Part shown: positions 11,108-60,081 of the stretch, one piece after another | How the letters are laid out: the number at the start of each line of letters is the position of its first letter | How positions within the stretch are numbered: the stretch's first letter is position 1 | Virus record (IMG/VR): IMGVR_UViG_3300010340_000980 | Strand: one strand, 5' to 3' | DNA: 64,000 nt | Origin: an uncultured virus (IMG/VR IMGVR_UViG_3300010340_000980) | Taxonomy: Duplodnaviria > Heunggongvirae > Uroviricota > Caudoviricetes | The notes under the pieces: model-generated | What the model was told of the DNA's origin: nothing | Seen by the model: only the letters and a program-made list of their open reading frames with translations | Databases searched by the model: none | Made by a program: the position numbers and the translations under genes

Positions 11108-13075
11108 ATGGATATGATAAAAATAAAAGAGGGTGATGTGTTTGAAGGACAGATTGAGTTTTATACAAACGGTAGTGCATCACTTAAAGTAGAAGAGAAT
11201 GATATATTCATTTATAAAAAAAATACAGCTAATTCACTACATTTAGATAAAGTAAAAATTCAAATATTTCAAGCTGAAAGAAAGTTAGAAGGAAGAGTAA
11301 TCGAAGTTGTTTCAAGATTTAAAACAGAATTTGTTGGTCGAGTTCAAATTTCAAAAAATAATACGACATTTGTTATTCCTGATAACAGTAAAATGTCTGT
11401 TGATTTTTATATCAAAGGAGGATTGATTGCTGAGGATGGACAGAAAGTAATTGTTGAATTAACGAAATGGGAAGATTCTAAATCTCCACAAGGTAAAATA
11501 ATTAAGATATTAGGTAATTCTGGTGATAATAATACAGAAATGAACTCAATAATGTTTGACTATGGATTACCAATTGAATTTCCTCAAGAGGTTATTAATG
11601 AATCGGCGCTTGTTCCAGAAATTATAACCGAGAAAGAAATTTCAAAAAGAAGAGATATGAGAAGTATCACCACAATAACAATTGATCCAGTTGATGCAAA
11701 AGACTTTGATGATGCTCTATCAATTAATTTTGTTGTTGATGGTAAAATAGAAGTTGGTGTTCATATTGCTGATGTTAGCCATTATGTAAAACCAGGTACT
11801 AAATTAGATGAGGAAGCTTTTAAAAGAGCTACCTCTGTTTATTTAGTTGATAGATGTGTTCCAATGTTACCAGAACGATTAAGTAATGGTATATGTTCAC
11901 TAAAACCACACGAAGATAGATTGGCTTTCTCAGTTATATTTACCTTAGATGAAGAAGGTAATATATTAGACACTTGGCAAGGTAAAACTATTATACACTC
12001 AGACCATAGATTTACATATGAACAAGCACAATCTGTTATTGAATCAGTTGGTAAACCTAATAATGAAGTTGGTAGAATATTATCCGAAGATGCTGGATTA
12101 GGCAATATGGATTTTAGAAGAGCCGGTTCTTTAGGAGCTAGTATAATAAGACTTAATAATTTAGCTCAAAAAATTAGAGAACGTAGAATTAAAAACGGTT
12201 CTATTGAAATGGGTGGAATTGAAGTAAGATTTAAATTAGCTGAGGATAATAAGAAACCAATCGGAGTTTACTTCAAAGAACAAAAAGAAGCTAATAAACT
12301 AATTGAAGAGTTTATGTTATTGGCTAATAAATCAGTTGCTAAAACTCTATCTGATGCGAGTAGAACTAATGTTTATAGAGTTCACGACACACCAAATGAA
12401 GATAAATTGAATTCATTAGTATCTATATGTAGGACATTTGGATATGAAGTGAAGATAGATGGTCAAGCGAGTGATATTAAGAGGTCTCTAAATTTACTAT
12501 TAAAGGAAATTAAAGGAAAGCCAGAAGAAAATATGATTGAGACTTTAGTGACTCGTTGTATGTCTAAAGCCACCTATACTATTAAGAATATTGGTCATTA
12601 TGGGTTAGGATTTACACACTACTCACATTTTACAAGTCCAATTAGAAGATATCCAGACTTAATAACACACCGATTATTATTCGACTTTTTAAATAAAAAG
12701 AGTCAAGGTAATCCAGGTATAATAGAAGAACAATCTAAATGGTGTTCTGCCAGAGAATTGGTTGCAGCTAAAGCTCAAAGAGATTCTATCAAGTATAAAC
12801 AAGCTGAATATCTTTTGGATAAAATCGGTAATGAATTTGAAGGAATTGTATCAGGAGTTACTGATTGGGGATTTTATGTAGAACTTATTGATAGTAAATG
12901 TGAAGGTATGATTAGGTATCAATCTCTTGAGGGTAATTGGTCAGTTGATACAAGTGCTTATACTATACAAGATGATAATGGTAAAACAATAAGACTTGGA
13001 GATAGGATGATGGTTATTGTTAAATCGGTTGACTTAGAAAAGAAACAAATAGATTTCATATTAAAAATTGATTAA
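11108..13075 (+). CDS. rnr: ribonuclease R (RNB family exoribonuclease)
   Basis: TIDPVDAKDFDDA, IEEFMLLAN, HFTSPIRRYPD, C-terminal S1 domain. Confidence 0.93.
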   Translation: MDMIKIKEGDVFEGQIEFYTNGSASLKVEENDIFIYKKNTANSLHLDKVKIQIFQAERKLEGRVIEVVSRFKTEFVGRVQISKNNTTFVIPDNSKMSVDFYIKGGLIAEDGQKVIVELTKWEDSKSPQGKIIKILGNSGDNNTEMNSIMFDYGLPIEFPQEVINESALVPEIITEKEISKRRDMRSITTITIDPVDAKDFDDALSINFVVDGKIEVGVHIADVSHYVKPGTKLDEEAFKRATSVYLVDRCVPMLPERLSNGICSLKPHEDRLAFSVIFTLDEEGNILDTWQGKTIIHSDHRFTYEQAQSVIESVGKPNNEVGRILSEDAGLGNMDFRRAGSLGASIIRLNNLAQKIRERRIKNGSIEMGGIEVRFKLAEDNKKPIGVYFKEQKEANKLIEEFMLLANKSVAKTLSDASRTNVYRVHDTPNEDKLNSLVSICRTFGYEVKIDGQASDIKRSLNLLLKEIKGKPEENMIETLVTRCMSKATYTIKNIGHYGLGFTHYSHFTSPIRRYPDLITHRLLFDFLNKKSQGNPGIIEEQSKWCSARELVAAKAQRDSIKYKQAEYLLDKIGNEFEGIVSGVTDWGFYVELIDSKCEGMIRYQSLEGNWSVDTSAYTIQDDNGKTIRLGDRMMVIVKSVDLEKKQIDFILKID

Positions 13076-13078
13076 ATG

Positions 13079-13107
13079 AAAAAATCCACTCATAAAGTGG
13101 ATTTTTT
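13079..13107. terminator. bidirectional intrinsic terminator
   Basis: aaaaaatccact-cataa-agtggatttttt between convergent genes. Confidence 0.8.
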
Positions 13108-13438
13108 AAATACATTTGTATCCTTTACTCTTCTCAAAATCTTCGGCATATCTCAAAATAATTTCTTTGAAATCAGAAGCGGTAACGTTTTTTCCTAAAA
13201 ACCTCTGATATCTAGGAAAAATATCATTAACATTTTCAGCCAATTTTTTTAGACCATTAGCAGCTTGAATAGATTCTTCTTCTGTCATAGAATAAGCCAT
13301 CCAGTTATATGTTATATCTGGATATTTTTCTTCATAATATTTTGCGTTGGATTCTTTACAAAGCTCACCAAGCATATGTTCGGAATTGATACTAGTCATA
13401 AATTCCGAACGGCTTTTGGTTATTATTGTTCTACTCAT
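13106..13438 (-). CDS. hypothetical protein
   Basis: 110 aa ORF. Confidence 0.65.
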   Translation of the reverse strand: MSRTIITKSRSEFMTSINSEHMLGELCKESNAKYYEEKYPDITYNWMAYSMTEEESIQAANGLKKLAENVNDIFPRYQRFLGKNVTASDFKEIILRYAEDFEKSKGYKCI

Positions 13439-13602
13439 TAAAAATCCATTTTATGTTTAGACTTACGGGAATAAGCTTTTTTATCTTTAAAAGTTTGATT
13501 TTTAAAGATATTATAAGCACCTGCTTCAATTATTTCTAATCTACGACGAGTTTTTTCGGCTTTTAAAATATCTTCTCTAGACAATTTTACAGATGCTTTC
13601 AT
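13438..13602 (-). CDS. small basic protein with ArfA-like KKxYxRKxKH tail
   Basis: MKASVKLSREDILKAEKTRRRLEIIEAGAYNIFKNQTFKDKKAYSRKSKHKMDF (54 aa, below ORF-track cutoff); TATCTTTG upstream. Confidence 0.55.
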   Translation of the reverse strand: MKASVKLSREDILKAEKTRRRLEIIEAGAYNIFKNQTFKDKKAYSRKSKHKMDF

Positions 13603-13689
13603 TTCGATTGATTTGTTTTACAAAGATACTATATTTTTTAATACAAATCAAGTATAAAATATAATATATACTAAAAATAGATTAGTAAA

Positions 13690-13851
13690 ATGGCTCACAT
13701 ACAAAGGTTTAATGAAGAGTTTGATGATTATATAGAAACAGTCACAAGATATATTAACTCTCATAAAGAATATAAGAATATGGATGTTGATGATGTTATA
13801 GAAGAATTGAAAAAAGAAAAACTGTTGAAGAATTATATACCCATGAACTAA
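13690..13851 (+). CDS. small ORF truncated by fusion into a half hairpin
   Basis: MAHIQRFNEE... (53 aa); AATATATA upstream; stop lies inside the half repeat. Confidence 0.5.
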   Translation: MAHIQRFNEEFDDYIETVTRYINSHKEYKNMDVDDVIEELKKEKLLKNYIPMN

Positions 13852-13879
13852 ATAAAAAACTTACATATACGCCTTGTTA
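13835..13879. repeat. attC-like site, right half only
   Basis: atatac..gaactaaataaaaaacttacatatacgccttGTTA, nearly identical to right halves of the sites at 15312 and 21724. Confidence 0.75.
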
Positions 13880-13908
13880 TGTGTTAGTAAAAAAAATAAA
13901 AACTTATT

Positions 13909-14229
13909 ATGAAACATATTAGAAAATTTAACGAATCCGAAAGTTTAGATAAAACTATATTCTCAGGACAGACTAAAAATGGTTGGAAATATAATATAAT
14001 AACAATTAACGATTCAAGAGATGAATTACAATTAACAACTGAAGATGGTGTGGAACTAGATGCTAGTGAAATGTTACACGAAGCGGTTGATGCTTATATT
14101 AATGGAGATGCCAGCACTAAAGGATTTTTAATTGATGTTCAAGACATAACAGAAGCGTATGATAAGATGTATGAACTTATGGACATGGGTTCCAGTCTTG
14201 ATGGATTAGTAGATATGGAGGATATTTAA
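13909..14229 (+). CDS. cassette gene, hypothetical (MKHIRKFNES N-terminus)
   Basis: 106 aa between GTTATGTGT (13876) and ACACATAAC (14249). Confidence 0.75.
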   Translation: MKHIRKFNESESLDKTIFSGQTKNGWKYNIITINDSRDELQLTTEDGVELDASEMLHEAVDAYINGDASTKGFLIDVQDITEAYDKMYELMDMGSSLDGLVDMEDI

Positions 14230-14245
14230 TTTTTTTTATTACACA

Positions 14246-14370
14246 TAACGGTTCTCGGCTTTGCGATGGTGGGGTTTCAAGGCACAAATGTTCAACCCAC
14301 AACTAATGTTTAATAGAATTACAAATGATGAATTTACAACTTCCGCCCCACTATTGCAAAACCGATGTTA
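14246..14370. repeat. attC-like hairpin
   Basis: TAAC ggttc tcggctttgcgatggtgggg ... ccccactattgcaaaaccga t GTTA. Confidence 0.85.
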
Positions 14371-15302
14371 TGCGTAGTGTTTTAGTCCACGCTGATTGCT
14401 TTGATGTGTTTCCATATATTGCTGATAAAAGTGTTGATATGATTTGTTGCGACCTTCCTTATGGAACAACCGCTTGTGCTTGGGATGTAATTATACCATT
14501 TGACAAACTTTGGAATGAGTATAAAAGGATAATAAAAGATAAAGGCGTAATTGTATTATTTGGAAGTGAACCATTTTCTTCATTGTTAAGAACTTCTAAT
14601 TTAGACTGGTATAAATATGATTGGATTTGGGAAAAGAATAATGCAGGGAATTTCCAATTAGTTAAATATCAACCATTAAAGATACACGAATCTATATCTG
14701 TATTTTATAATGAAAATCCTGATATGGAATTTGCTAATATTATGCTTGAAAATATGAAACGATTAAAATTGAAAAATATTGATGTATCAAAATTGGAATT
14801 ATCAAGAACAGGTGGAATGACTGGTTGGGTAACAAATAAATTGAATGGTTCACAATTACCAACAGCCGAACAATGGGATAAAATTTGCAACTTATTTGGA
14901 ATTGAAAACAAGTATTATGAAATTTTAAGTACGGTAAAAAGAGTTACATACAACTTGGATTTAGACGATACAGACATTATTTGCTCAAATAAAGGTAAAG
15001 CAGGAAGCTTAGGGCATCTATCAAGTGAAAGTAAAAGAGATAACTATATACAAACAAAGACAGGTTATCCAAAAAGTATTTTAAAATATGATAGAGAAAA
15101 TGGATTACACCCAACACAAAAACCTTTGGAGCTTATGAAATACTTAATTAAAACCTACTCAAACGAAAATGATGTAGTAATGGATAATTGTATGGGTAGC
15201 AATACAACAGGATTAGCTTGTAAAGAGTTAAATCGTCAATACATAGGAATTGAAAAAGACAAAAATTATTACGATGTTTCGGTTAGCAGGGTGCTGTCTT
15301 AA
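14325..15302 (+). CDS. cassette gene: N4/N6 DNA methyltransferase (beta class) with inserted HTH-like segment
   Basis: DLPY, WIWEK, HPTQKP, DNCMGSNTTG, IGIEKD; alternative start at 14370 inside GTTATG. Confidence 0.88.
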   Translation: MMNLQLPPHYCKTDVMRSVLVHADCFDVFPYIADKSVDMICCDLPYGTTACAWDVIIPFDKLWNEYKRIIKDKGVIVLFGSEPFSSLLRTSNLDWYKYDWIWEKNNAGNFQLVKYQPLKIHESISVFYNENPDMEFANIMLENMKRLKLKNIDVSKLELSRTGGMTGWVTNKLNGSQLPTAEQWDKICNLFGIENKYYEILSTVKRVTYNLDLDDTDIICSNKGKAGSLGHLSSESKRDNYIQTKTGYPKSILKYDRENGLHPTQKPLELMKYLIKTYSNENDVVMDNCMGSNTTGLACKELNRQYIGIEKDKNYYDVSVSRVLS

Positions 15303-15311
15303 CATTACGCA

Positions 15312-15399
15312 TAACGTCTGGTGTATATGTAGGTTTTTAACTCTAAACTTTAATATATACTCTTGAACTAAATAAAAAACTTACATATACACCTTGTTA
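15312..15399. repeat. attC-like hairpin (AATATATA in loop)
   Basis: TAAC..ggtgtatatgtaggttttt...aaaaacttacatatacacc tt GTTA. Confidence 0.85.
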
Positions 15400-15424
15400 T
15401 GTGTTAGTAAAAATATTAAATTAT

Positions 15425-16069
15425 ATGAAATATATTAGATTATTTGAAAACCTGATAGCTAATCAAGAATTAATAGATTATATCAAAAAATTTGATATTC
15501 AAAAGATAAAATTACCATTTTCAAAAAAAGAATATGAATCTTTCATACACAATCTAAGTCCTGATAGATATGATGAAACTGGTTATTTCAGAGATTCTGA
15601 GTATTATAATGGGTTTTTATATAATGGTGAAGAATATTGTAAAGAAGTAACATCTGATTATGATTATCTAAAATTAGTTAAATACTTATTTGACTATAAT
15701 AACAATTTAAAATTTTATGATTTAGGGTGTGGAATAGGAACTCTTCTATATTTTGTAAAGGTAATTGGTTATAAAAATCCAGTCGGGGTTGAATTCCAAT
15801 CGGAATTAAAAGAGTTTCACAAGAAACTTAATTTGGATGTTATATATGGAGATCTACTCAAAATGGATTTATCTTTTTTGAAAGATGCTGATGTTATTTA
15901 TTTATATAAACCGATTTATGATGATTCATTAGCAAATAGTTTGATTGATAAAATACTTAAAAAAACTAAAGAAGGAGTCATAATTATTTATTGTAATCCG
16001 GACGATTACTTTTTTGATAGAGAGATTATTTCACCTTCAAATTTGAACCAATATATTTTAATAAAATAA
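15425..16069 (+). CDS. cassette gene: class I SAM-dependent methyltransferase
   Basis: FYDLGCGIG, GVE, GDLL; ATG at 15425 gives MKYIRLFEN. Confidence 0.75.
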   Translation: MKYIRLFENLIANQELIDYIKKFDIQKIKLPFSKKEYESFIHNLSPDRYDETGYFRDSEYYNGFLYNGEEYCKEVTSDYDYLKLVKYLFDYNNNLKFYDLGCGIGTLLYFVKVIGYKNPVGVEFQSELKEFHKKLNLDVIYGDLLKMDLSFLKDADVIYLYKPIYDDSLANSLIDKILKKTKEGVIIIYCNPDDYFFDREIISPSNLNQYILIK

Positions 16070-16085
16070 TATTTTTTATTACACA

Positions 16086-16133
16086 TAACGGTTGGGTGTA
16101 AAAAATCGTTTTAATGTTTTTTACACTTTGTTA
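16086..16133. repeat. short attC-like hairpin (48 bp)
   Basis: TAAC..gtgtaaaaaa...ttttttacac..GTTA. Confidence 0.8.
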
Positions 16134-16163
16134 TATGAATGTAAATTAAAAATTATACAAATT

Positions 16164-16361
16164 ATGAGAAAAGAATTAACACAAGAAGAGAAAAACTTTC
16201 ACAATTGGTTAGAACAATTTATTAAAGAATCTGGACATCAATGGGGATTTGGATTTTATGTAGAAACTATGGATGGGAAAGTTTTTCATCAAGGAACTGA
16301 TGAATATAAAGAGTGGTATGATGGTAAGTTAGAAGAGTATAAACAAACTCATAATTTTTAA
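16164..16361 (+). CDS. cassette gene, hypothetical
   Basis: ATG at 16164 (MRKELTQEEK); cassette ends complementary over about 25 nt. Confidence 0.7.
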   Translation: MRKELTQEEKNFHNWLEQFIKESGHQWGFGFYVETMDGKVFHQGTDEYKEWYDGKLEEYKQTHNF

Positions 16362-16372
16362 TTTATTTCATA

Positions 16373-16462
16373 TAACGGTTGGGTGTATATGTAGGTTTTT
16401 AACTCTAAACTTTAATATATATACCACTGAACTAAATAAAAACTTACATATACACCTTGTTA
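16373..16462. repeat. attC-like hairpin (AATATATA in loop)
   Basis: Same family as the 15312 and 21724 sites. Confidence 0.85.
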
Positions 16463-16520
16463 TGTGTAAGTAAAAAAAAATAAGTATGTAATTTATTTTA
16501 AAAACTAAAAATTAAATAAG

Positions 16521-16688
16521 ATGGAAAAAATTAAAGAAAAACTTGAAGAAAAAATAGCAATTAGAAAATCTATTGAAGATAGAATTCATGCTGATATTAG
16601 AAATGGAAAAGATTTGGTTAAAAAAGACTTAGATGCTATTTTTGCTTTAAGTTTAGTGATAACTACATTAGAAGAATTGTTAAAATAA
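16521..16688 (+). CDS. cassette gene, 55 aa hypothetical
   Basis: MEKIKEKLEEKIAIRKSIEDRIH...LEELLK, translated by hand. Confidence 0.6.
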   Translation: MEKIKEKLEEKIAIRKSIEDRIHADIRNGKDLVKKDLDAIFALSLVITTLEELLK

Positions 16689-16699
16689 ATTATTACTTA

Positions 16700-16823
16700 T
16701 AACGGTTGGGTGTATATGTAGTGTGAGATTAGAAAGACTAAACATCACTTAACCGATGAACTTAATTAGAAGAACAAATGTTGAATATACCACCAAACCA
16801 CACATTACATATACACCTTGTTA
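16700..16823. repeat. attC-like hairpin
   Basis: TAACggttgggtgtatatgtagtgtg...cacattacatatacaccttGTTA; same family as 18625 and 20484. Confidence 0.85.
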
Positions 16824-16938
16824 TGTGTAGGTGTGATTATTAACTGATGAACTTAAATCGAAGAAATAAAGAAAATTTTAGAAAAAAGAGGGAGGGAAAT
16901 TTTTATTCCTTATATTTGTATATAAATAATATAAAAAA

Positions 16939-17274
16939 ATGACAAAAGACTATTACAAAAATTTAATTGATAAATATATTGAGGAAGATTTTAATGGAAC
17001 TGATAAGTTGAGTTCTGTTTCTGCTTTATGGATATCCGATTCTGAAATTGGCTATAATGATAGACAAGAATTGATGATGTATATTGCTAAAATATGTATA
17101 GATGGATTAAAGTCACATGGTATTAGTAAATTAGATGAAATGGTTTCAAATCCACTTGAAAGTTCAACTAATATAGATAATATGATCGAACAACATGATA
17201 ATATGATTGATAATATTATAGACAACTTAGAAAAATCTTCAGATTCAAAAAAAGATATATTTAATTGTAATTAA
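16939..17274 (+). CDS. cassette gene, hypothetical
   Basis: 111 aa; TATATTTG at 16911. Confidence 0.7.
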   Translation: MTKDYYKNLIDKYIEEDFNGTDKLSSVSALWISDSEIGYNDRQELMMYIAKICIDGLKSHGISKLDEMVSNPLESSTNIDNMIEQHDNMIDNIIDNLEKSSDSKKDIFNCN

Positions 17275-17284
17275 TTTATTTGAA

Positions 17285-17485
17285 ATGAAAGCTATAATTT
17301 TAGATAACTATCCACCTTACTTAACTCCGGGTAAATTATATGAAATAAAGGGACAATCTCAAATTGATCCGAACATTTATTTCGTAGTAACGGATGATGG
17401 ATCTAGAACTTCAGTTGATATTTCAAATCTAAAATTTTCAGACCAAATAAGAAATGAAAAAATAGAAAGTATATTAGTATTTTAA
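17285..17485 (+). CDS. cassette gene, hypothetical (second gene of a two-gene cassette)
   Basis: 66 aa, ends IRNEKIESILVF. Confidence 0.7.
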   Translation: MKAIILDNYPPYLTPGKLYEIKGQSQIDPNIYFVVTDDGSRTSVDISNLKFSDQIRNEKIESILVF

Positions 17486-17559
17486 AAATGCGCGGTGAAG
17501 TTTTTCTAAAATTTTTCTAACACAGAAGTTAATTCAGAGGACAGAACCACACTTACACA

Positions 17560-17690
17560 TAACGGTGACAGATATATTTCAGTTTTTTATTTTTAATATA
17601 TACAAATAAAATTTAATATGAAAAAAGAACTTAAAAACTTACAGACGTTTGAACAAAGAACAGATAAAAAATTGAATATATCTGTTGTTA
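17560..17690. repeat. attC-like hairpin containing promoter motif and start of ORF
   Basis: TAACggtgacagatatatt...aatatatctgttGTTA; near-identical to the 20234 site. Confidence 0.85.
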
Positions 17691-17842
17691 TGAACAGTGT
17701 TTTAGGTGATTTGGAAAAATTGGTTTCTAAATACGATAAAGCTCAAAAGAAAGCAGTTGATGAATTTGATGATAATGTTAATTATGGAAAAGTTAGAGGA
17801 TTAACGGAAGCAATTGAAGTGGTAAAGAAACATTGTTCATAA
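17618..17842 (+). CDS. cassette gene, hypothetical; N-terminus encoded in the hairpin
   Basis: MKKELKNLQTFEQRTDKKLNISVV|MNSV...; stop codon is the TAA of the next TAAC. Confidence 0.7.
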   Translation: MKKELKNLQTFEQRTDKKLNISVVMNSVLGDLEKLVSKYDKAQKKAVDEFDDNVNYGKVRGLTEAIEVVKKHCS

Positions 17843-17926
17843 CGATTGCAAATATATGTAGGTTTTTGTAACAAATGCTTAAAATTTACGTATAACTTAA
17901 TAAAAACTTACATATATTTGTTGTTA
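17840..17926. repeat. attC-like hairpin (TATATTTG in right arm)
   Basis: TAACgattgcaaatatatgtagg...cttacatatatttgttGTTA. Confidence 0.85.
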
Positions 17927-17984
17927 TGTGTATGTATTTTAATTTTTTGTGCGTTGGAAATATTAATTTAAAAATAGAAACAAA

Positions 17985-18194
17985 ATGGAGAAATTTATTG
18001 AAGTAAACGGAAACTGGTTATTTAGTGATGAACATTTTTTATTGACTGAACGAGGTTGGTTAAAAGCAAAAGAACTACAAAATGGTGATAAAGTTATTGG
18101 TGTGAAAGGCGAATCAACAATAAAAAATATTATAGAATGTGGAGAACGACCAGATGCACCTATTGTTGGTGAAACTGGTGCGGTGGAAAATTAA
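17985..18194 (+). CDS. cassette gene: Hint/intein block-B-like fragment
   Basis: SDEHFLLTERGWLKAKELQNGDKVI. Confidence 0.55.
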   Translation: MEKFIEVNGNWLFSDEHFLLTERGWLKAKELQNGDKVIGVKGESTIKNIIECGERPDAPIVGETGAVEN

Positions 18195-18205
18195 AATATT
18201 ACATA

Positions 18206-18292
18206 TAACGTTTTGCGGCTTGGCGAAGGCTGCCTAACGGAAATTTCAAAGTTCGCAGAATGTTTATGGCAGATTTTGCCAAACCGCTGTTA
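18206..18292. repeat. attC-like hairpin
   Basis: TAACgttttgcggcttggcgaa...ttttgccaaaccgctGTTA. Confidence 0.85.
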
Positions 18293-18339
18293 TGTGCTGG
18301 GCGGTTTATCAGCACTAAATTTTATTTAAATGAAACGAA

Positions 18340-18615
18340 ATGAAAACGATTTTTATTTGGATGTTAAGAAAATACGCAAATACCGAAAAAGGTAGAATTG
18401 AAATTATGCGTATAATGGATGATAAGGTTAGTGATAATTATAGTGAGCAAACTTTATATGGAAATGTTTACAACTACTTTATTGAGTTTGTAATGGCAAA
18501 TCCATTTGTAGTAAAATGCACATTTCAAAACGATAAAGAAAGTTTGCGTATTTTAAAAAGCGGTATTGAAAAATCGTTTGATGAAGCAATTGGTTATATT
18601 GAAAACGAAAAGTAG
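18340..18615 (+). CDS. cassette gene, hypothetical
   Basis: 91 aa between GTTATGTGC and GCACATAAC. Confidence 0.7.
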   Translation: MKTIFIWMLRKYANTEKGRIEIMRIMDDKVSDNYSEQTLYGNVYNYFIEFVMANPFVVKCTFQNDKESLRILKSGIEKSFDEAIGYIENEK

Positions 18616-18624
18616 CCTTGCACA

Positions 18625-18747
18625 TAACGGTTGGGTGTATATGTAGTGTGAGATTTGAAACACTAAACCTCACTTAACCAATGAACTTGATTAGAAGTGG
18701 AAACATGAATATATCACAGAACCTCACATTACATATACACCTTGTTA
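18625..18747. repeat. attC-like hairpin
   Basis: Same family as 16700 and 20484. Confidence 0.85.
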
Positions 18748-18866
18748 TGTGTAGGTGTGGCTAATTAAGGTAGAATGTTTAATCGGAGAATTGAACAAAA
18801 ATTTTAAAAGAAAAAGAAGGGTGGGAAATTTAATTTAAAATATTTATATATAAAGAAAATAAATAT

Positions 18867-19367
18867 ATGAAAGATTTGAGAAAATTTATTAAAACCACTA
18901 TACGAGAATTTTTGAATGAAAGCAATTTAGATGGTTATCATTTAGAACCATATCATAAATCATCATACCACAAATATGAGAATGAAAATGATTTAGAATT
19001 TAAGATTGTTAGAGGAAAGGATGGTAAATTGTGGGGTATTGATGTTTATACAACACCATATAAAACATTAATAGGAACTATTGAACTTTCATATAGAAGT
19101 GAAATTATATCATTTGAAGAACAAAGAGATGGACAACCTAATGTTGGTAATATATCAGTTGATGAAAGATTTAGAAATCAAGGATTTGCTAAAATTTTAT
19201 ATAAAAAACTAATATCTGAACTTAAAAAAGATGGTTATAAAAAACTATTTGCTGGTTTAACACGAAATTCTATGTATGTAAATAATATATGGGATAAACT
19301 TAAAGATGGTGAAATAGAGGTGGATTATGATGGAAGAATAAAAACTATCGAATTTATGAATTTATAA
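18867..19367 (+). CDS. cassette gene: GNAT-family acetyltransferase
   Basis: ISVDERFRNQGFAKILY acetyl-CoA binding motif; N-terminus ...IREFLNES. Confidence 0.75.
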   Translation: MKDLRKFIKTTIREFLNESNLDGYHLEPYHKSSYHKYENENDLEFKIVRGKDGKLWGIDVYTTPYKTLIGTIELSYRSEIISFEEQRDGQPNVGNISVDERFRNQGFAKILYKKLISELKKDGYKKLFAGLTRNSMYVNNIWDKLKDGEIEVDYDGRIKTIEFMNL

Positions 19368-19439
19368 AAGTGGGTGGGTTTTTCTTTTAAAATTTTTAAC
19401 CGAAATGTTGATTAGAAGGATAAACTGAACACTTACACA

Positions 19440-19564
19440 TAACGTTCCTCGGATATATGTAGTTTTTTCTTAAATTGAAACACGAAACTTAAATAATATG
19501 GACAAATATAATAAGAACACAGAACTTGAAAATACAGATAAAAAATTACATATATCTGATGTTA
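19440..19564. repeat. attC-like hairpin containing start of ORF
   Basis: TAACgttcctcggatatatgtag...ttacatatatctgatGTTA. Confidence 0.85.
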
Positions 19565-19803
19565 GTGATAGTTCATCTACTCAAATGTGGAAAGACATCA
19601 AAAAGTGGATTATCATAATTTTTTTGTGGTTATCTATACTAATCTTTTCACTTATATTCTTTTATAATAAAACAATGATATTAAGTGGATGGATGTTGAT
19701 AACTGGATTAATAATGTGGTTAAAAGGAAAAGATTACGAAAAATGGTATTGGAAAAATTATGATAATATCAGAAAAGTTGAAAGTGATGTCTATTCTAAA
19801 TGA
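19498..19803 (+). CDS. cassette gene: membrane protein (2 predicted TM segments)
   Basis: Hydrophobic WIIIIFLWLSILIFSLIFF and MILSGWMLITGLIMWL; first 22 codons lie in the hairpin. Confidence 0.7.
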   Translation: MDKYNKNTELENTDKKLHISDVSDSSSTQMWKDIKKWIIIIFLWLSILIFSLIFFYNKTMILSGWMLITGLIMWLKGKDYEKWYWKNYDNIRKVESDVYSK

Positions 19804-19811
19804 ATTATCAC

Positions 19812-19889
19812 TAACGGTTGCAAATATGAGAAGTAAATTTTTTCTATAAAAATAGATAAATCAAAATTTATTTCTTATATTTGTTGTTA
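19812..19889. repeat. attC-like hairpin (TATATTTG in right arm)
   Basis: TAACggttgcaaatatgagaagtaaatttt...aaaatttatttcttatatttgttGTTA. Confidence 0.85.
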
Positions 19890-19930
19890 TATTTGTTGTT
19901 TAATTTATTAACCTTAAAAATAGAAAAAAT

Positions 19931-20230
19931 ATGATACGATTTAAATTAGAAGATGAAAACAATAACTATAAACAATATAGTATTGAAATTGATTTTGTAG
20001 ATGGTGAAGAATTTGATGATTGGTCTTATGATAATAAGGACTTTGAAGATTTCATGGAACAAATGGAGACAGGACATGATAAATGGAATGGTGTTCATGA
20101 TGGGTCGGGTGGTGTTGATAATGATGGTGTTGAGTATGTATCATTTTCATCATATGAAATACAAGATTTTAATACTGCTATAAAGTTATGGAAAGATTTT
20201 TTCAGAAAACTCAATAAATTAAACAATTGA
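19931..20230 (+). CDS. cassette gene, acidic hypothetical protein
   Basis: 99 aa, D/E-rich. Confidence 0.7.
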   Translation: MIRFKLEDENNNYKQYSIEIDFVDGEEFDDWSYDNKDFEDFMEQMETGHDKWNGVHDGSGGVDNDGVEYVSFSSYEIQDFNTAIKLWKDFFRKLNKLNN

Positions 20231-20233
20231 ATA

Positions 20234-20363
20234 TAACGGTTGCAGATATATTTCAGGTTTTTATTTTAATATATACAAATAAACTTTAATATGAAAAAAG
20301 AACTTAAACATTTGAAAACATTTGAACAGAACACAGATAAAAACTTGAATATATCTGATGTTA
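20234..20363. repeat. attC-like hairpin containing promoter motif and start of ORF
   Basis: Near-identical to the 17560 site. Confidence 0.85.
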
Positions 20364-20476
20364 GCAAACAACGTGAACTGTTAATTTTTTTCTTAAATCA
20401 CTTAAATAAAAATCTAAATTTGGGTGTTAGTGAAATGTGGGTTGATGATTTTATACGCATCGGTAAAAAAAATTAA
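20291..20476 (+). CDS. cassette gene, hypothetical; N-terminus encoded in the hairpin
   Basis: MKKELKHLKTFEQNTDKNLNISDV|SKQREL... Confidence 0.65.
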   Translation: MKKELKHLKTFEQNTDKNLNISDVSKQRELLIFFLNHLNKNLNLGVSEMWVDDFIRIGKKN

Positions 20477-20483
20477 TAGTTGC

Positions 20484-20606
20484 TAACGGTTGGGTGTATA
20501 TGTAGTGTGAGATTTGAAACACGGAACTTGACTTAACTACTGATGTTGATTAGAATGATGAACTTGAATACAACACAGAACCTCACATTACATATACACC
20601 TTGTTA
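20484..20606. repeat. attC-like hairpin
   Basis: Same family as 16700 and 18625. Confidence 0.85.
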
Positions 20607-20658
20607 TGTGTTAGTAAAAAACTATAATTTAATATATACTAAAAAAACTTTTAAAATT

Positions 20659-20865
20659 ATGGGAGATAAAATTAAAAAATTCAATGAACATTATGTTGAG
20701 AAAACTTTCAACGAAAAACAAGTCGTTTCAATGTTGGTAGATGCGGTTATGACATCTATGGGTGATGAGTGGATACCACAAGAAGATGAAAATTTTAAAA
20801 GTTTTTTAAGAGGGTATGGACTACTGAGTATATTCCTCGATGAATATGGTTATGATGATTATTAA
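20659..20865 (+). CDS. cassette gene, hypothetical (MGDKIKKFNE)
   Basis: ATG at 20659 downstream of AATATATA. Confidence 0.7.
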   Translation: MGDKIKKFNEHYVEKTFNEKQVVSMLVDAVMTSMGDEWIPQEDENFKSFLRGYGLLSIFLDEYGYDDY

Positions 20866-20882
20866 TAGTTTTTTATTACACA

Positions 20883-20971
20883 TAACGTTTTGGTGTATGA
20901 GAAGGTTTGCTTAGATGAACTTTCAAATTAACCACAAATGCTGATAGCAAACTTTCTTATACACCTTGTTA
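20883..20971. repeat. attC-like hairpin
   Basis: TAAC..ggtgtatgagaaggtttgct...agcaaactttcttatacaccttGTTA. Confidence 0.85.
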
Positions 20972-21126
20972 TGTGTAGGTGTGATTATTAACCGACAATC
21001 TTCAATCGAAGCACAGAAAAAAAGAAGGGGAAATATTTTTTATTTAAGAAATTATTACCTTTATAAATAAAAACAGGGAAACCGAAAACTGATTAGAGTA
21101 GGTAAATTAAAAAACAAAATAAAATT

Positions 21127-21642
21127 ATGGAAAAAACAATTTTTAAATGTAGTAAAATGAAAAAAGTAAAAGTAACTATGATGACACTAATGATGTGTTT
21201 AATGACAAGTGTTGTTTTTGGACAGTGGACATATAAAACAATAAATAGTGAATTTGACGGTTCGTTCAAAAAAGCATATACACAAACAAATAATAGGGGT
21301 TATTTAATGATGGAAGTTGGTGAACCAACTTATAACGACACTATAAAAATTAATAGACCGTTTTTAGCATTAGGCGGTTCTTATTTTTGTGATGACTATA
21401 CTTATATTGATTTTGTATTGGTTGTTAATGGTGTGAATAAAAAATATGAATTAAAAGGTACTAAATCAAGTGATAGTAGAATGTATTATTTTGATGAATC
21501 AATATGGACAGATGAATTTATTAAAGATTTTAAAAGTGCATCAAAATGTTCCATCAGGGTTAATCAAGATTACTGTACAGATGATTATTATCAATTTGTT
21601 TTTTCTGGTTCAACAGCAGCTTATAACTTTATAACAAAATAA
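21127..21642 (+). CDS. cassette gene: exported protein with Sec signal peptide
   Basis: MKKVKVTMMTLMMCLMTSVVFG|QW, Gln after the cleavage site as is typical in Bacteroidota. Confidence 0.7.
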   Translation: MEKTIFKCSKMKKVKVTMMTLMMCLMTSVVFGQWTYKTINSEFDGSFKKAYTQTNNRGYLMMEVGEPTYNDTIKINRPFLALGGSYFCDDYTYIDFVLVVNGVNKKYELKGTKSSDSRMYYFDESIWTDEFIKDFKSASKCSIRVNQDYCTDDYYQFVFSGSTAAYNFITK

Positions 21643-21723
21643 AAAAAATATGTGCGGTGGGTTCTTTTTTCTAAAATTTTCATAACTAAATGTTAATTCG
21701 GAGAACAGAACCACACTTACACA

Positions 21724-21813
21724 TAACGACTGGGTGTATGTGTAGGTTTTTTAACTACAAACTTTAATATATACTCATGAACTAAATAAAAAACTTACAT
21801 ATACACCTTGTTA
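21724..21813. repeat. attC-like hairpin (AATATATA in loop)
   Basis: Same family as 15312 and 16373. Confidence 0.85.
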
Positions 21814-21851
21814 TGTGTTAGTAAAAAAATTAGATAAAATAAAACAAAATT

Positions 21852-22181
21852 ATGAGACATATTAAAAAATTTAACGAAGGATTAGAAGATCACATAATAG
21901 ATGGTGAAAGAACCGATAGTGAATGGGGTAAAGGAAAATATGATAAAGCACATTTATTTGCAGATAAACTAAAAGACGGATTTGCTATAAATATATCAAG
22001 AGAAAATGTGGATAAATTTTTTGATATATTAAAGGACATAACTTGGATAGAATTACCAAAGAGTTCAAAACATTACACAAGTGATAGATACTATTTTGTT
22101 TTATTTGGTAATAGATTATTACACTCTGATAAACCTTATTTTGGTGGTAATGAGTTAGAGGTTTATACACCTTCTATCTAA
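21852..22181 (+). CDS. cassette gene, hypothetical (MRHIKKFNE)
   Basis: 109 aa. Confidence 0.75.
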   Translation: MRHIKKFNEGLEDHIIDGERTDSEWGKGKYDKAHLFADKLKDGFAINISRENVDKFFDILKDITWIELPKSSKHYTSDRYYFVLFGNRLLHSDKPYFGGNELEVYTPSI

Positions 22182-22196
22182 TTTTTTTATTAAACA

Positions 22197-22283
22197 TAAC
22201 GGTTGGGTGTATATGTAGTTTTTATTTGGAAATATCAAAACTTATTCCCACCTTTGTAAAAAAATTACATATACACCTTGTTA
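22197..22283. repeat. attC-like hairpin
   Basis: TAACggttgggtgtatatgtagttttt...aaaaattacatatacaccttGTTA. Confidence 0.85.
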
Positions 22284-22354
22284 TGTGTAGTAATTTTGTG
22301 GGTGGTTTTTTAACTAAAAATTAATTTCCAAATATTTATATATAAAAGAAAACT

Positions 22355-22711
22355 ATGAGTAAAGAAATGAGAGAACAAATCAACAAGGTAAAGAATTTTG
22401 GACAATTCTTGAATGAAAATAAAAAACCTAAAGATAGGTTTTGGTATCATATTACAAGAAATGAGTTGTTTGATAAAGTTGAAAGATATTACAATGAACA
22501 TCAAGATGGATATGTAAAATTGAATTTTGAAATAGAACACGATGGTAGTAAACTACACTTCAATGAATTATATAAACGAGATGGTGGTATCTATGGTGAT
22601 GATTTTGAATTTTATTTCAAAGATGAAAATGGAAAACAATCATCTTGGTATCTTTCAAGACTTGATAAAGAAATTCTTTACGATATTGTAAACAAAATGG
22701 TGGGTGGGTAA
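22355..22711 (+). CDS. cassette gene, hypothetical (...KNFGQFLNE)
   Basis: 118 aa. Confidence 0.75.
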   Translation: MSKEMREQINKVKNFGQFLNENKKPKDRFWYHITRNELFDKVERYYNEHQDGYVKLNFEIEHDGSKLHFNELYKRDGGIYGDDFEFYFKDENGKQSSWYLSRLDKEILYDIVNKMVGG

Positions 22712-22725
22712 AAAATTATTACACA

Positions 22726-22850
22726 TAACGGCTGACAATAACCGTCAGGTGGGGATAAAATGCACCGACCTTTCAACCTGACGTAAAGCATATTAGGTGC
22801 AGATAGCTTCAATTTGGCACATCGCCCCCACTTGCGGTTATTGTTTGTTA
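22726..22850. repeat. attC-like hairpin
   Basis: TAACggctgacaataaccgtcaggtgggg...ccccacttgcggttattgtttGTTA. Confidence 0.85.
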
Positions 22851-22877
22851 TAGGGCGTTTTTTAATTCAAATCAAAA

Positions 22878-23096
22878 ATGGACTATTCAATCGTAGACAC
22901 AAAAGGCAACATTGTAGGAACAATAAGAGAAACCTACCCTGTTAGATTTGTTGACCCAGAAAGGGAGTATGATGTTAATTATCTCGCACCACACCAAAGT
23001 GCTAAAAAACAAAGAGAGGAAGGTTTCTTTACCTTAAAAGGTAAGGATTTAACTCAAAAACAAATATGGCAACTGTTTCTATTAGGGATGCTCTAA
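22878..23096 (+). CDS. integrase-proximal cassette gene, hypothetical
   Basis: 72 aa between GTTATAGGGCGTTTT and AAAATGCCCTATAAC. Confidence 0.7.
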   Translation: MDYSIVDTKGNIVGTIRETYPVRFVDPEREYDVNYLAPHQSAKKQREEGFFTLKGKDLTQKQIWQLFLLGML

Positions 23097-23161
23097 AATG
23101 CCCTATAACTATTATATATCTATACCTCAACTTTTTTACCTTATTTTACTATACTTTTTCT
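23095..23161. other. putative attI-like insertion site
   Basis: Last cassette end (CCCTATAAC, 23109) is not followed by a hairpin; the integrase 5' region follows directly. Confidence 0.6.
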
Positions 23162-23962
23162 ATGAAAAAGACAGACTATTACGAAATTTGTGAACAAAAA
23201 TTGAAATATTTAAATTATTCAGATAGGACAATTAAGTCCTATCTTTTTTATATAAATCAATTTTTATCTACAGTAAATATAGCACCTACCAGACTTACCT
23301 CTTCCGATTTTCAACTCTATTTGGATAGATATCAATTCACTTCAGTTTCTCAACAAAATCAAGTTATCAACGCTATCAGATTTCTTTATAAATTTGGCTT
23401 AAATAAAAAATATGATAAAGTCAGTTTCAAAAGACCAAAATCTGAAAAGAAATTACCCAGAGTTATTGATGGGGAATTTATAAAAGAAAGACTTGGTAAA
23501 ATTGTTAATATAAAACATAAAGCAATACTTACACTGACATATTCAGTTGGTCTCAGAGTTTCTGAAATAGTCAACCTTAAAATAGAAGATATTGACTCCA
23601 AAAGAATGTTAATACATATCAAAAATGCTAAAGGAAGAAAAGATAGAATTGTTCCTTTATCCGATAATGTTTTACTATTATTAAGAGAATACTTTAAACA
23701 ATACAGACCAAAAGAATATCTTTTTAATGGTCAGAATTCAACACAATATTCAATAGTATCATGTCAAGCAATTTATAAAAAATACATAGATCAGAATTCA
23801 TCCATTCACACCCTTAGACACTCATCATTTACAAATCTATTAGAAAACGGAACAGATATCAGGATTATACAGAAGATTGCAGGTCACTCAAACGTAAAAA
23901 CTACTGAAATATACACTCATGTATCTAATCAAATACTTCAAAAAGTAAATTTACCAATTTAA
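23162..23962 (+). CDS. IntI/XerD-like tyrosine recombinase (putative cassette integrase)
   Basis: GLRVSE, KNAKGRKDRIVPL, HTLRHS, AGHSNVKTTEIYTHV (intact R-K-H-R-H-Y); N-terminal SAM-like domain; ATG at 23162 preferred to 23066. Confidence 0.9.
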   Translation: MKKTDYYEICEQKLKYLNYSDRTIKSYLFYINQFLSTVNIAPTRLTSSDFQLYLDRYQFTSVSQQNQVINAIRFLYKFGLNKKYDKVSFKRPKSEKKLPRVIDGEFIKERLGKIVNIKHKAILTLTYSVGLRVSEIVNLKIEDIDSKRMLIHIKNAKGRKDRIVPLSDNVLLLLREYFKQYRPKEYLFNGQNSTQYSIVSCQAIYKKYIDQNSSIHTLRHSSFTNLLENGTDIRIIQKIAGHSNVKTTEIYTHVSNQILQKVNLPI

Positions 23963-23967
23963 AACTT

Positions 23968-24729
23968 TTACCAATTCAAATAATTCGCAAATTCCACAAT
24001 AAGGTATTGATATTCTTCGTCAATATCATTTATTGAATTTTGTCTTTTTAAATTATCTTGAGACCAAAGTGGTCTTAAATTATCAAGTCTATTCACAATG
24101 CTCGATGGGGTGTCTTTTTTGAATTTTGATATCGGAATAATATGATCAACATGCCATTCACCATAATTTTCCCAAGACATATTTTCTAAAAATCTTTTTT
24201 CAAGATGTATTTTTAATTCATTATAATCATAACCTAGTAAATTTTCAGTTGATGATTCCTTTTCAATTTTTAATTGTTCTAATGTTCTTCTAAGAATTCT
24301 TCTCCAGATAAATTGGTGTTTTCTCTTTTGGTAAGATCTTTTTTTGATTTCTCTTTTATTATCAGTAATTTTGTTTAGAACATCTTTATTTTCCTCATAA
24401 TATTTTTTCCTTTTCTCAAGTATATCTTCTCTATTATTGTAATAATATTCCAATTTTTTACTTTTAAGTCTCTCGTGGTGCCTTTCCGAATATCTACGAT
24501 CTCTTTCTCTTTTCTTTTCTTTATTAAGGTTTTGATATATTACTTCTTTATTTTTTTCGTAGTATTCTTTATTTTGACTGCGAAAATGTTCATGTTTGCT
24601 ATAATAATATTCACTTCTTTTTATTGCAACACATTCATTACATTCAGACATATATCCATCTTTATGCCTTTTAGATTTTCTAAAAAAATCAAATTCTTTT
24701 TTTATTTTACAATTTTTACAAACTTTCAT
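23968..24729 (-). CDS. HNH endonuclease
   Basis: N-terminal CxxC...CxxC, WHVDHIIP...NLRPLWSQDN. Confidence 0.8.
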   Translation of the reverse strand: MKVCKNCKIKKEFDFFRKSKRHKDGYMSECNECVAIKRSEYYYSKHEHFRSQNKEYYEKNKEVIYQNLNKEKKRERDRRYSERHHERLKSKKLEYYYNNREDILEKRKKYYEENKDVLNKITDNKREIKKRSYQKRKHQFIWRRILRRTLEQLKIEKESSTENLLGYDYNELKIHLEKRFLENMSWENYGEWHVDHIIPISKFKKDTPSSIVNRLDNLRPLWSQDNLKRQNSINDIDEEYQYLIVEFANYLNW

Positions 24730-24799: not shown

Positions 24800-25534
24800 A
24801 TGGAATATAAAAACTTTAAAAAATATGCTCTAAGTGAAGGCATATCATCAATGAATTTAAATTACTACGAGAATCAAGTTCAATCATCTATGACACCTTA
24901 TATCTTAGAGGAAAGAGAAATGCGTGTTACTCAGATGGATGTTTTTAGTAGATTACTTAGAGATAGGATAATATGGGTATCTGGTCCAGTTAATCAAAAT
25001 ATGTCTGACATTGTTCAAGCACAATTACTTTTTCTTGATTCTGTTGAGAAAAAAGATATTTCACTTTATATTAATTCACCTGGTGGTTCCGTTCTTTGTG
25101 GACTTGGTATAGTCGATCTAATGAATTATATCAGTTCTGATGTTGCTACAATCAATATTGGTATGTGTGCTTCGATGGCAAGTATTTTGTTAAGCTCTGG
25201 TACCAAAGGTAAAAGATCATCACTCGTATATTCAAAAGTTATGATCCATCAAGTTTCGTCGGGGTCGTCGGGTCACATCGAGGATAATCGTATAAGCCAA
25301 ATGGAAGCAGAAAAATATAACTACATACTTTTTAAAATGCTGTCTAAAAATACAGGTAGAAATTTTGATGAAGTTTTAGAAGGAGCTAGACGAGATCATT
25401 GGTTAAATTCTGATGAAGCTCTTAAGTTTGGACTTATCGATGAAATAATTGGTTTAGATAAAACATCAAGTATATCAAATCATCTTGATGGATTTGAAGA
25501 TTACTACAATAAAGAAATTTTGAAAAAATTCTAA
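24800..25534 (+). CDS. clpP: ATP-dependent Clp protease proteolytic subunit
   Basis: DVFSRLLRDRII, YINSPGGSV, CASMAS, MIHQ, RDHWL. Confidence 0.93.
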   Translation: MEYKNFKKYALSEGISSMNLNYYENQVQSSMTPYILEEREMRVTQMDVFSRLLRDRIIWVSGPVNQNMSDIVQAQLLFLDSVEKKDISLYINSPGGSVLCGLGIVDLMNYISSDVATINIGMCASMASILLSSGTKGKRSSLVYSKVMIHQVSSGSSGHIEDNRISQMEAEKYNYILFKMLSKNTGRNFDEVLEGARRDHWLNSDEALKFGLIDEIIGLDKTSSISNHLDGFEDYYNKEILKKF

Positions 25535-58998: not shown

Positions 58999-59070
58999 TA
59001 GCGATACCAGGAATCGAACCTGGTCCTCAAGGATATGAGCCGAGTGAGCTTGCCGTTACACCATATCGCC
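58999..59070 (-). tRNA. tRNA-Met (CAT); could be Ile2
   Basis: GGCGATA acceptor, CT-CAT-AT loop, GGTTCGATTCC. Confidence 0.8.
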
Positions 59071-59075
59071 ATTTG

Positions 59076-59156
59076 TGCCAAGAGTGGGACTCGAACCCAC
59101 AAACCTTCAGGAACAGAGGTTTGAGCTCTGCGCGTTTACCATTTCACCATCTTGGC
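59076..59156 (-). tRNA. tRNA-Leu (CAA)
   Basis: cagag-CTCAAAC-ctctg, long variable arm. Confidence 0.88.
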
Positions 59157-59161
59157 ATTTG

Positions 59162-59233
59162 TTCCAATGACCAGAGTTGAACTGGTGTCTCACCGATACC
59201 AACGGTGTGTAATTGCCGTTATACGACATTGGA
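59162..59233 (-). tRNA. tRNA-Thr (GGT)
   Basis: caccg-TTGGTAT-cggtg; atypical TCCAATG acceptor. Confidence 0.75.
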
Positions 59234-59238
59234 ATTTG

Positions 59239-59312: not shown

Positions 59313-59315
59313 ATT

Positions 59316-60029: not shown

Positions 60030-60081
60030 ATTTTAATTTTTTATTTTATATATTAAAAATATGAGCCTCCCGTCAAAATAG

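Follow-up and report, generated by a model that had tools for sequence, protein, structure and literature searches.

Hairpin recombination sites of a large uncultured phage as a probable reusable coding front end for unrelated cassette proteins

A 64,000-nucleotide stretch of DNA from an uncultured virus of the Caudoviricetes (IMG/VR record IMGVR_UViG_3300010340_000980; hereafter the window) contains an array of small genes separated by hairpins that resemble the attC sites of integrons, and at four of these hairpins a reading frame begins in the loop and runs out through the edge of the site into the gene behind it. From comparison of sequences we consider it probable that such recombination sites act as a reusable front end for unrelated cassette proteins, providing a promoter-like box, an ATG and a short N-terminal peptide (the head, of 15-24 codons in the window) to a coding sequence that follows in frame (the body). 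The sequences establish the anatomy of the sites, the fixed frame, the many combinations of head and body, the sharp junctions at both of the boxes that bound each hairpin, and the linkage of such arrays to a recombinase.

The hairpin array and its four head-type sites

The array consists of 17 attC-like hairpins (14242..22854, + strand), identified by folding and by a hairpin detector, that separate small open reading frames (ORFs), all on the + strand; the detector recovers 17/17 of these sites and makes one extra match in the 64 kb. Each site is 56-139 bases long and reads, in order, TAACG, a spacer of 3-4 bases, the arm L'', a loop, the arm L', a spacer of 1-2 bases and GTTA. Single-strand folding with DNA parameters gave energies of -7.8 to -22.3 kcal/mol for all 17 sites and an attC-type fold in 17/17, with TAAC paired to GTTA, an asymmetric spacer and L arms of 11-23 bp; the cores ACATAAC and GTTATGT match RYYYAAC and GTTRRRY only partly. 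The left end of the array is a solo right half of a hairpin (13840..13886, +; L'-GTTATGTG, no left arm), recognised from its sequence and frames.

Counting the box of this solo half (13876) with those of the hairpins, there are 18 right boxes, and at four of them a hairpin ATG is followed by an open run in the frame of the GTT, with 38, 51, 80 and 311 open codons past it. The remaining 14/18 close within 2-32 codons, typically as GTT ATG TGT TAG, and neither of the other two frames has an ATG plus an open run across the box at any of the 18. All four ATGs are found in hairpin loops, with TAACG and GTTA marking the edges of each hairpin, and the GTT is read as a Val codon. This bears out an earlier sequence-only reading, which had described the ORFs at 17618, 20291 and 19498 as beginning within the loop and reading through GTT as Val, and a methyltransferase ORF (14325-15302) as crossing its box in the same way; ORFs, folds and frames all agree. 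At 27% GC we estimate that about 8.5% of codons are stops, so that the 68-110 codons found open across a site are unexpected, and composition excludes chance as their source.

Two of the four hairpins are close relatives. The first (17556..17694, +; fold -16.1 kcal/mol with DNA parameters) carries in its loop a promoter-like box, TTAATATATAC, found by box search at 17593..17603 (+), 14 bases before the ATG of the head MKKELKNLQTFEQRTDKKLNISVV (17618..17689, +, from ATG to GTT); the ORF (17618-17842; MKKELKNLQTFEQRTDKKLNISVV|MNSV..) continues as the body MNSVLGDLEKLV.. (17690..17842, +; 50 residues), which begins with an ATG and whose homologue on contig L059 has a different head. The second (20230..20367, +; -12.1 kcal/mol) has the same box at 20266..20276 (+), again 14 bases before the ATG, so that the promoter motif that the earlier reading had placed in two sites was found in both. 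Its head MKKELKHLKTFEQNTDKNLNISDV (20291..20362, +) opens an ORF (20291-20476; MKKELKHLKTFEQNTDKNLNISDV|SKQR..) whose body, SKQRELLIFFLNHLNKNLNLGVSEMWVDDFIRIGKKN (20363..20476, +), is start-less, its first ATG being codon 24 of 37. The two hairpins are identical at 115/131 positions (88%) from TAACG to GTTA and at only 21/60 bases upstream and 15/60 downstream; similarity stops at the boxes, as had been suspected.

The third hairpin (19436..19568, +) belongs to a diverged family, 70-71% identical to those at 17556 and 20230. Its head MDKYNKNTELENTDKKLHISDV (19498..19563, +; ORF 19498-19803, MDKYNKNTELENTDKKLHISDV|SDSS..) leads into the body SDSSSTQMWKDIKKW.. (19564..19803, +), a protein that is small and hydrophobic. 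Its coding sequence has an internal ATG at 19585, and the protein collection described below includes a homologue, P0048. The fourth is a GC-richer hairpin (14242..14374, +; from fold and frames) with loop ATG at 14325, head MMNLQLPPHYCKTDV and GTT at 14367-14369; the ORF in its long form (14325..15302, +; MMNLQLPPHYCKTDV|MRSV..) encodes a DNA methyltransferase (Pfam N6_N4_Mtase, 1.3e-29). Heads akin to this one, ending in ..PPFCKTDV and ..CDKTAV, are present in other arrays.

Three further hairpins (15308-15403, 16369-16466 and 21720-21817) are 'closed': their loops hold a TTAATATATAC-type box, exact at 15350 and 21764 and with one mismatch at 16412, and have no loop ATG. Behind the boxes at 15350 and 21764 the next ORF begins 65-77 bases further on, past GTT ATG TGT TAG. 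The interior of a hairpin may thus supply a promoter even where no head is supplied. Two kinds of stretch also recur around the array: a purine-rich ..AAAAGAAGGG(T)GGGAAAT.. after three long hairpins (16830-16900, 18752-18830 and 20975-21030), and ..GTGGGTGGGTTTTTCTTTTAAAA..-type stretches after ORF stops (17487-17556 and 19368-19436).

Heads, bodies and frames beyond the window

Searched against a protein collection of 5.8 billion clusters, in which matches are biased towards called ORFs, the 61-residue ORF (20291-20476) matched 37 proteins, 28 of them with a MKKELKHLKTFEQNTDKNLNISDV-type head, on 27 body clusters; 9 of these 27 are without Met. The 101-residue ORF (19498-19803) matched 59 proteins, 58 of which have a ..NTDKKLHISDV-type head, on 32 body clusters. 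Bodies are reused as well: the body SKQRELLIFF.. occurs in ten proteins with 10 different N-terminal parts, two of these being near-identical variants, and proteins P0001 and P0006 have identical bodies behind unrelated heads. IMG/VR holds no relative of the SKQRELL.. body, so its junctions are visible at the protein level only. The sequence-only reading had named as its refutation that a leader always has the same partner; with 27 and 32 distinct partners counted, no such constancy was found, nor did the comparisons turn up its other refuting outcome, translation that starts only downstream of GTTA.

A census of the DNA that is independent of ORFs and gene calls gave a similar picture. The pattern used, 18 specified bases of the L'-R' arm (TTGAATATATCTGNTGTTA), occurs in IMG/VR in 104 stretches at 109 sites, 92 of which are unique by head and body; among these 92, 73 heads and 82 bodies can be told apart. 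At 88/92 unique sites it is the Val frame that stays open longest past GTT, and at 86/92 its open run reaches at least 30 codons (30-153); an in-frame ATG lies within 45 codons upstream of GTT, again at 86/92. The complementary left arm is present in 76/92 and absent in 16/92. Among the bodies of at least 30 codons (n = 85), 56 are without Met over the first 20 residues, 26 have no Met at all, and in 46 the first 15 codons are without ATG, GTG or TTG, which indicates that many bodies cannot start alone. The core of the proposal, that a site gives a start and a tag to unrelated coding DNA, holds on this comparative evidence from proteins and DNA alike; among the four window bodies, only that at 20363 clearly needs its head.

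Contigs of prokaryote genomes contain 65 sites with the TTGAATATATCTGNTGTTA pattern, of which 19 are head-type and 46 are without head structure. All 19 lie on low-GC contigs of metagenome bins, and 16/19 have a left arm; the 46 are ordinary chance matches and form a natural control for the census. Pattern matches in isolate genomes (Cyclobacterium, Winogradskyella, Lacihabitans, Paenibacillus and others) were set aside as chance, having neither hairpin nor head.

The heads themselves vary as coding sequence does. Over codons 2-15 of 37 unique 22-codon heads the mean column entropy is 0.89, 0.64 and 0.96 at codon positions 1, 2 and 3, and codons 10-12 (F10, N11, E12) are conserved while their third base varies. 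Stops occur in frame in 0/37 of these heads, and in both other frames in 37/37.

The context of the loop ATG is similarly informative. Searched through the whole window with one mismatch allowed, the TTAATATATAC box occurs 27 times versus 10.8 +/- 3.1 expected, a number reached by 0/100 shuffles, and ordinary long genes at 1343, 13690, 26802, 44876 and 24729(-) have it 18-20 bases ahead of their ATG. A closely similar box is found in 55/86 head hairpins, where the commonest distance is 20 bases before the ATG (24/55); at this matching spacing the loop ATG shares the upstream context of undisputed starts. Such comparative evidence suggests that transcription begins from the loop and translation at the loop ATG. 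A transcript beginning after the box would be without the L'' arm, so that the main L''-L' hairpin cannot form, and it is seen in 0/3 of the transcripts folded. In the lowest-energy RNA folds of the loop-start transcripts from 17556 and 20230 the ATG and first codons are unpaired; in that from 19436 the ATG lies within a weak local stem of 4 base pairs. In the same RNA folds, the head codons T-D-K (ACAGATAAA; 17660-17685 and 20334-20358), which have the same sequence as the beginning of the L'' arm, are able to form local pairs with the L' arm (CAGATA..TATCTG).

Several observations weigh against this reading. Three of the four window bodies have a possible start of their own, namely ATG 14370, ATG 17690 and Met 19585. 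The first of these directly follows the Val in the methyltransferase ORF, and PHROG profiles align from residue 19-20, meaning that the methyltransferase family begins at about this Met; the Met at 19585 is conserved, and the homologue P0048 begins there (MWKD) without a head. The L' arm carries TGA in both other frames, so any ORF across it must use the Val frame, and part of the frame result consequently comes from the site itself rather than from selection for fusion. The censuses drew on viral contigs from metagenomes, among which duplicates were removed only when identical, and related phages are not independent. Finally, several unrelated head families occur (MKDLKHIKRFNESEEN.., MITEEEYLKAKQIVQEYEKQ.. 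and MIKFIKNLFKRRKQ..), which argues against one required peptide.

The own starts of the bodies, the frames closed by the arm itself and the bias of protein matches towards called ORFs could all be accommodated if the loop ORFs were unused, the bodies starting at downstream or non-canonical codons and the open frame being a by-product of arm constraints and longest-ORF calling. We regard this as highly improbable. That an ORF crosses the arm at all, and then continues for 30-153 codons, is unforced by the arm; the dominance of the Val frame was found in a census free of gene calls; and the bodies that have no Met, or no near start codon of any kind, the ATG at its expected place, the varying third positions at the conserved F-N-E and the box-to-ATG spacing of ordinary genes all speak against it.

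Another alternative concerns the head peptide, which might be a functional tag common to small phage proteins (serving, for example, localisation, packaging or stability) and not a passive start and scar. Synonymous change at the conserved F-N-E is consistent with this, as are the heads that persist where the left arm is lost and the head-like N-termini of window genes that have no head hairpin, at 13909 (MKHIRKFNES..), 21852 (MRHIKKFNEG..), 48342 (MKIKKFNES..) and 62744(-) (MIIKKFNES..). Similar N-termini are found, likewise on genes with no head hairpin, at 20659 (MGDKIKKFNEH..) and 13690 (MAHIQRFNEE..), and all six may be fossil heads or a preferred N-terminus of the phage. The capsid-targeting leader of T4 internal proteins offers a likeness for such a tag. 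Since the same kind of site is served by unrelated head families, the DNA arms dictate the last head residues, and for so short a peptide no family or structural match was found, none having been looked for, we hold a tag function to be unlikely, if worth keeping in view.

The recombinase, the junctions and the gene to which a hairpin belongs

At the downstream end of the array, its start 212 bases past the last hairpin, lies a gene for a tyrosine recombinase of 298 residues (23066..23962, +; Pfam Phage_integrase and SAM_4). Its best NCBIfam matches are both below cut-off (XerA NF040815, 184 bits versus 220; integron integrase TIGR02249, 160 versus 265), and the closest solved structures are the archaeal XerA-like 4a8e and 5hxy. 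The alignment with the integron integrase IntI4 (2a3v) is in two pieces, with query residues 210-239 opposite chain residues 181-258 and about 48 residues of the IntI-specific insertion missing. We therefore reject an identity as integron integrase (IntI) and describe the enzyme as Xer-like. The integrases of cultured Polaribacter and Cellulophaga phages were dropped as relatives, being only 39-40% identical to the window recombinase, and no hairpin of the array type was found in the variable DNA that lies upstream of the Freya_10 integrase.

The association of enzyme and hairpins extends well beyond the window. Relatives of the recombinase with 54-83% identity were drawn from 80 viral-contig loci, and the detector, at a stricter setting, found 410 hairpins in 72/80 of them. 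Of these hairpins 373/410 lie upstream of the recombinase on the same strand, in 68/80 loci, the nearest at a median of 382 bases from its start; only 22/410 lie downstream on the recombinase strand, despite there being more downstream DNA (667 versus 498 kb). When the 320 unique upstream sites were sorted by frame, 80 (25%) proved to be head-type with the Val frame open, versus 12 and 25 for the other frames, and these 80 carry 78 different heads, ending in LNISDV, LHISDV, LGIGAV, ..CKTDV and others. The window's 4/17 (24%) is thus typical, and the methyltransferase-type head recurs elsewhere.

The ends of the ORF modules are those expected of integron cassettes. Comparing the 14 bases after G|TTA with the 14 that end in TAAC, we found inverted repeats with a mean of 11.4/14, versus only 8.5/14 for the two boxes of one adjacent hairpin, the six clear modules giving 13 versus 6-9; R'' accordingly pairs with the R' of its own other end, a property of integron cassettes. 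R-box position 11 (14246-22847) is the only or main end mismatch in 8/17 cassettes, 6 of these at 13/14, with A in the reverse complement of R'' and G in R'. On the + strand this would be a wobble pair (T.G) and on the - strand a mismatch (A.C), a difference that might mark the strand, and the base explains the frequent Ser as third body residue (63/85). A call of the recombining strand from a bulged T in L'' was rejected as not decidable from sequence.

Junctions are sharp at both boxes. In DNA alignment the body at 17690 and its L059 homologue resemble each other only over the segment that opens with the L' arm and GTTA and closes at the next TAACG, while the head and the following hairpin differ. 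In two further DNA pairs the match starts inside the head and breaks off sharply where the next TAAC box stands; L050, one of the contigs involved, is without a left arm.

To which gene a hairpin belongs was judged by pairing each of 422 sites with every site on another contig. Of these pairs 1433 share the interior only, 68 share only the upstream ORF, 61 only the downstream ORF, and 60 all three. The interior is shared together with the downstream ORF in 30 pairs and together with the upstream ORF in 1, which indicates that the inside of a hairpin, with any head in it, usually belongs to the same unit as the following gene. Among families found in at least 2 contigs the interior family is kept by the downstream ORF in 42/50 and by the upstream ORF in 34/50, and neighbouring ORFs remain together in 31/50. 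A head donated by the upstream cassette to 'captured DNA', as the sequence-only reading had suggested, is therefore not the usual case. Linkage of interior and downstream gene is also what one would predict for a canonical integron viewed from the recombinase, a reading under which every cassette gene is antisense and begins in its own site. The identical bodies with unrelated heads, together with the 61 downstream-only pairs, indicate that junctions occur at both boxes, which one enzyme might bring about by acting on either folded strand or with homologous exchange in addition.

These modules can also be read in terms of the PeSLs of T4-type phages, in which a promoter, a stem-loop and a start codon come together and at which exchange takes place with no recombinase involved (PMC2839356, PMC4122927, as far as the available text goes). 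The hairpins would then be promoter-terminator modules, homologous recombination between the repeats would shuffle the genes, and the recombinase would be an unrelated phage integrase. Consistent with this, the loops carry a promoter-like box and start codon like PeSLs (PMC2839356), and the neighbouring enzyme is not an IntI, the IntI-specific domain being absent; this absence also weighs against our main reading, in which the Xer-like enzyme would recombine the array sites. Some breakpoints, moreover, fall inside loops (L036 versus L050), a sign that homologous exchange also contributes. Such exchange between repeats does not account for junctions at boxes of 4-5 bases between otherwise unrelated sequences, for ORF modules each with its own inverted ends of 10-13 bases, or for hairpins that lie upstream of and co-oriented with the recombinase across loci; PeSL phages, in the available part of PMC2839356, have no dedicated recombinase. 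We consider the PeSL explanation improbable.

Genome setting, known systems and meaning

We read the window as part of a large uncultured phage, whose host is probably a member of the Bacteroidota. The only Rfam matches at gathering thresholds, none of them to an array hairpin, are 15 tRNA genes in one cluster (58999-61489, -); tRNA clusters of such size are typical of large phages. Many window ORFs are long and without a Pfam family, and phage-type genes include PhoH, an endonuclease VII-like protein, a Clp-type protease and PHROG-only families. The genes that adjoin the recombinase, one endonuclease VII-like (23968-24729, -) and one with a GIY-YIG domain (25531-26568, -), may code for homing-type nucleases.

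Two assemblies of uncultured phages, of 462 and 642 kb, share short near-identical stretches of DNA with the window; the only other near-identical match among phage records is in a methyltransferase of Flavobacterium phages. The public 462-kb assembly LR756500.1 (L190 in our set) has a row of about 9 such hairpins at 12423-15777, two of them head-type (MIKRLIEKLKTLRLYFV.. and MICVARHS..LHIANV); no homologue of the recombinase was found within 15 kb of it. LR756502.1 has just one hairpin-like stretch in common. Three sequencing runs, each of a separate study and with activated sludge or anaerobic digester as label, contain 86-92% of the words sampled from the array (14200-22900), and one of the three may be the source sample.

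Clusters of attC sites in virulent phages, including a Polaribacter phage and methyltransferase cassettes, have been described (Qi et al. 2023, PMC9892861); in the available part of that paper the term 'start codon' does not occur. Integrons, as far as that text goes, and our array have in common small, mostly unknown genes (here with methyltransferases among them) between imperfect palindromes with TAAC and GTTA boxes, complementary module ends, few site families on many unrelated genes, and a tyrosine recombinase at one end. In contrast to integrons, the recombinase here is without the IntI insertion, the direction of the genes is towards it, the interior of a site is linked to the following gene rather than to the preceding one, and the site lies within coding sequence, with a promoter-like box, an ATG and a head. 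The integron order of an ORF followed by its own attC, reading away from intI under Pc, is not what we see, since hairpins of the 373/410 class stand upstream of the recombinase and co-oriented with it; a canonical geometry would result only from taking every gene as an antisense cassette. The solo right half, which might be compared with an attI site, stands at the array end far from the recombinase. Nor does the array form a CALIN, defined by at least two attC sites with no recombinase nearby, given the enzyme 212 bases off.

Short ORFs at recombination sites are known. ORF-11, ORF-17 and ORF-18 of attI1 and short attC ORFs aid translation by coupling or re-initiation and end at a stop (PMC8876359, in its available part). 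Like the heads, the attI1 ORFs are short, have start signals, span the crossover and help cassettes that lack a translation start; their stop comes from the cassette core or 5' untranslated region, whereas the heads have no stop at or just after the core and, at 86/92 sites, run on for 30-153 codons as a protein N-terminus. Cassettes of aac(6')-Ib (aacA4) can borrow the start codon of an upstream gene (PMC8876359), so that, as with our bodies, a start-less cassette gene is expressed as an N-terminal fusion with upstream sequence. Those fusions, in the text available, are sporadic events of attC loss or cassette fusion in clinical integrons, whereas the array has a standing design with fixed phase and dedicated heads. 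PeSLs, for their part, are phage modules between small genes of unknown function, in plastic regions, and act as exchange points; promoter-like box, stem-loop and ATG are all present in the array. In the parts of the PeSL papers available, exchange is homology-driven, the crossover lies between the -10 element and the ATG (PMC2839356), and there is no dedicated recombinase, TAAC/GTTA box or coding head; the dedicated recombinase and the box junctions of the array argue against membership. Our literature search found no description of attC-like sites that encode in-frame heads, nor of integrons in huge phages, and the head peptide strings gave no match. None of the texts cited describes a recombination site encoding a reusable in-frame head, and our search found nothing closer.

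We propose that the region is a cassette array of integron-like type, carried by a large uncultured phage of high AT content and served by the Xer-like recombinase downstream. Its genes are read towards the enzyme, so that a folded recombination site lies on the 5' side of each gene. In about a quarter of the sites the loop contains what would be the expression signals: the promoter-like TTAATATATAC, a short untranslated stretch, an ATG and 15-29 codons. These head codons cross the L' arm, the spacer and the R' box, reading ..L-N/H-I-S-D-V and then (S/I/R/M)-x-S, and the coding sequence continues into a body often without a start codon of its own. A transcript from the loop box, without the L'' arm, would carry no hairpin on the messenger RNA. 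The TGA in both other frames of the L' arm places all bodies behind such sites in one phase with the junction within the GTT codon, and this fixed phase keeps heads and bodies in frame on re-assortment.

Taken to its fullest extent, this would make heads and bodies separate coding modules that the Xer-like recombinase re-assorts in one phase at the two boxes of the near-symmetric hairpin (TAA|C and G|TTA, on opposite folded strands), a natural in-frame 'recombinational cloning' comparable with phase-matched exon shuffling, which would build new tagged proteins with the conserved head ..K-H-I-K-R-F-N-E.. as a common functional tag of the many small cassette proteins. This extended form we put forward as a speculation that is, as a whole, rather doubtful.

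If loop ATGs are used, one site would combine a recombination site, a start of transcription and translation and a protein-coding linker, and start-less gene fragments would become expressible once placed behind any such site. The proposal would give gene callers an annotation rule for hundreds of small phage ORFs, and one hairpin, one start-less body and one recombinase would offer a simple experimental handle on cassette formation. If true, it would extend the integron idea to phages and to a recombinase other than IntI, as well as to cassettes that are read from their own site and to the in-frame assembly of proteins from exchangeable parts.

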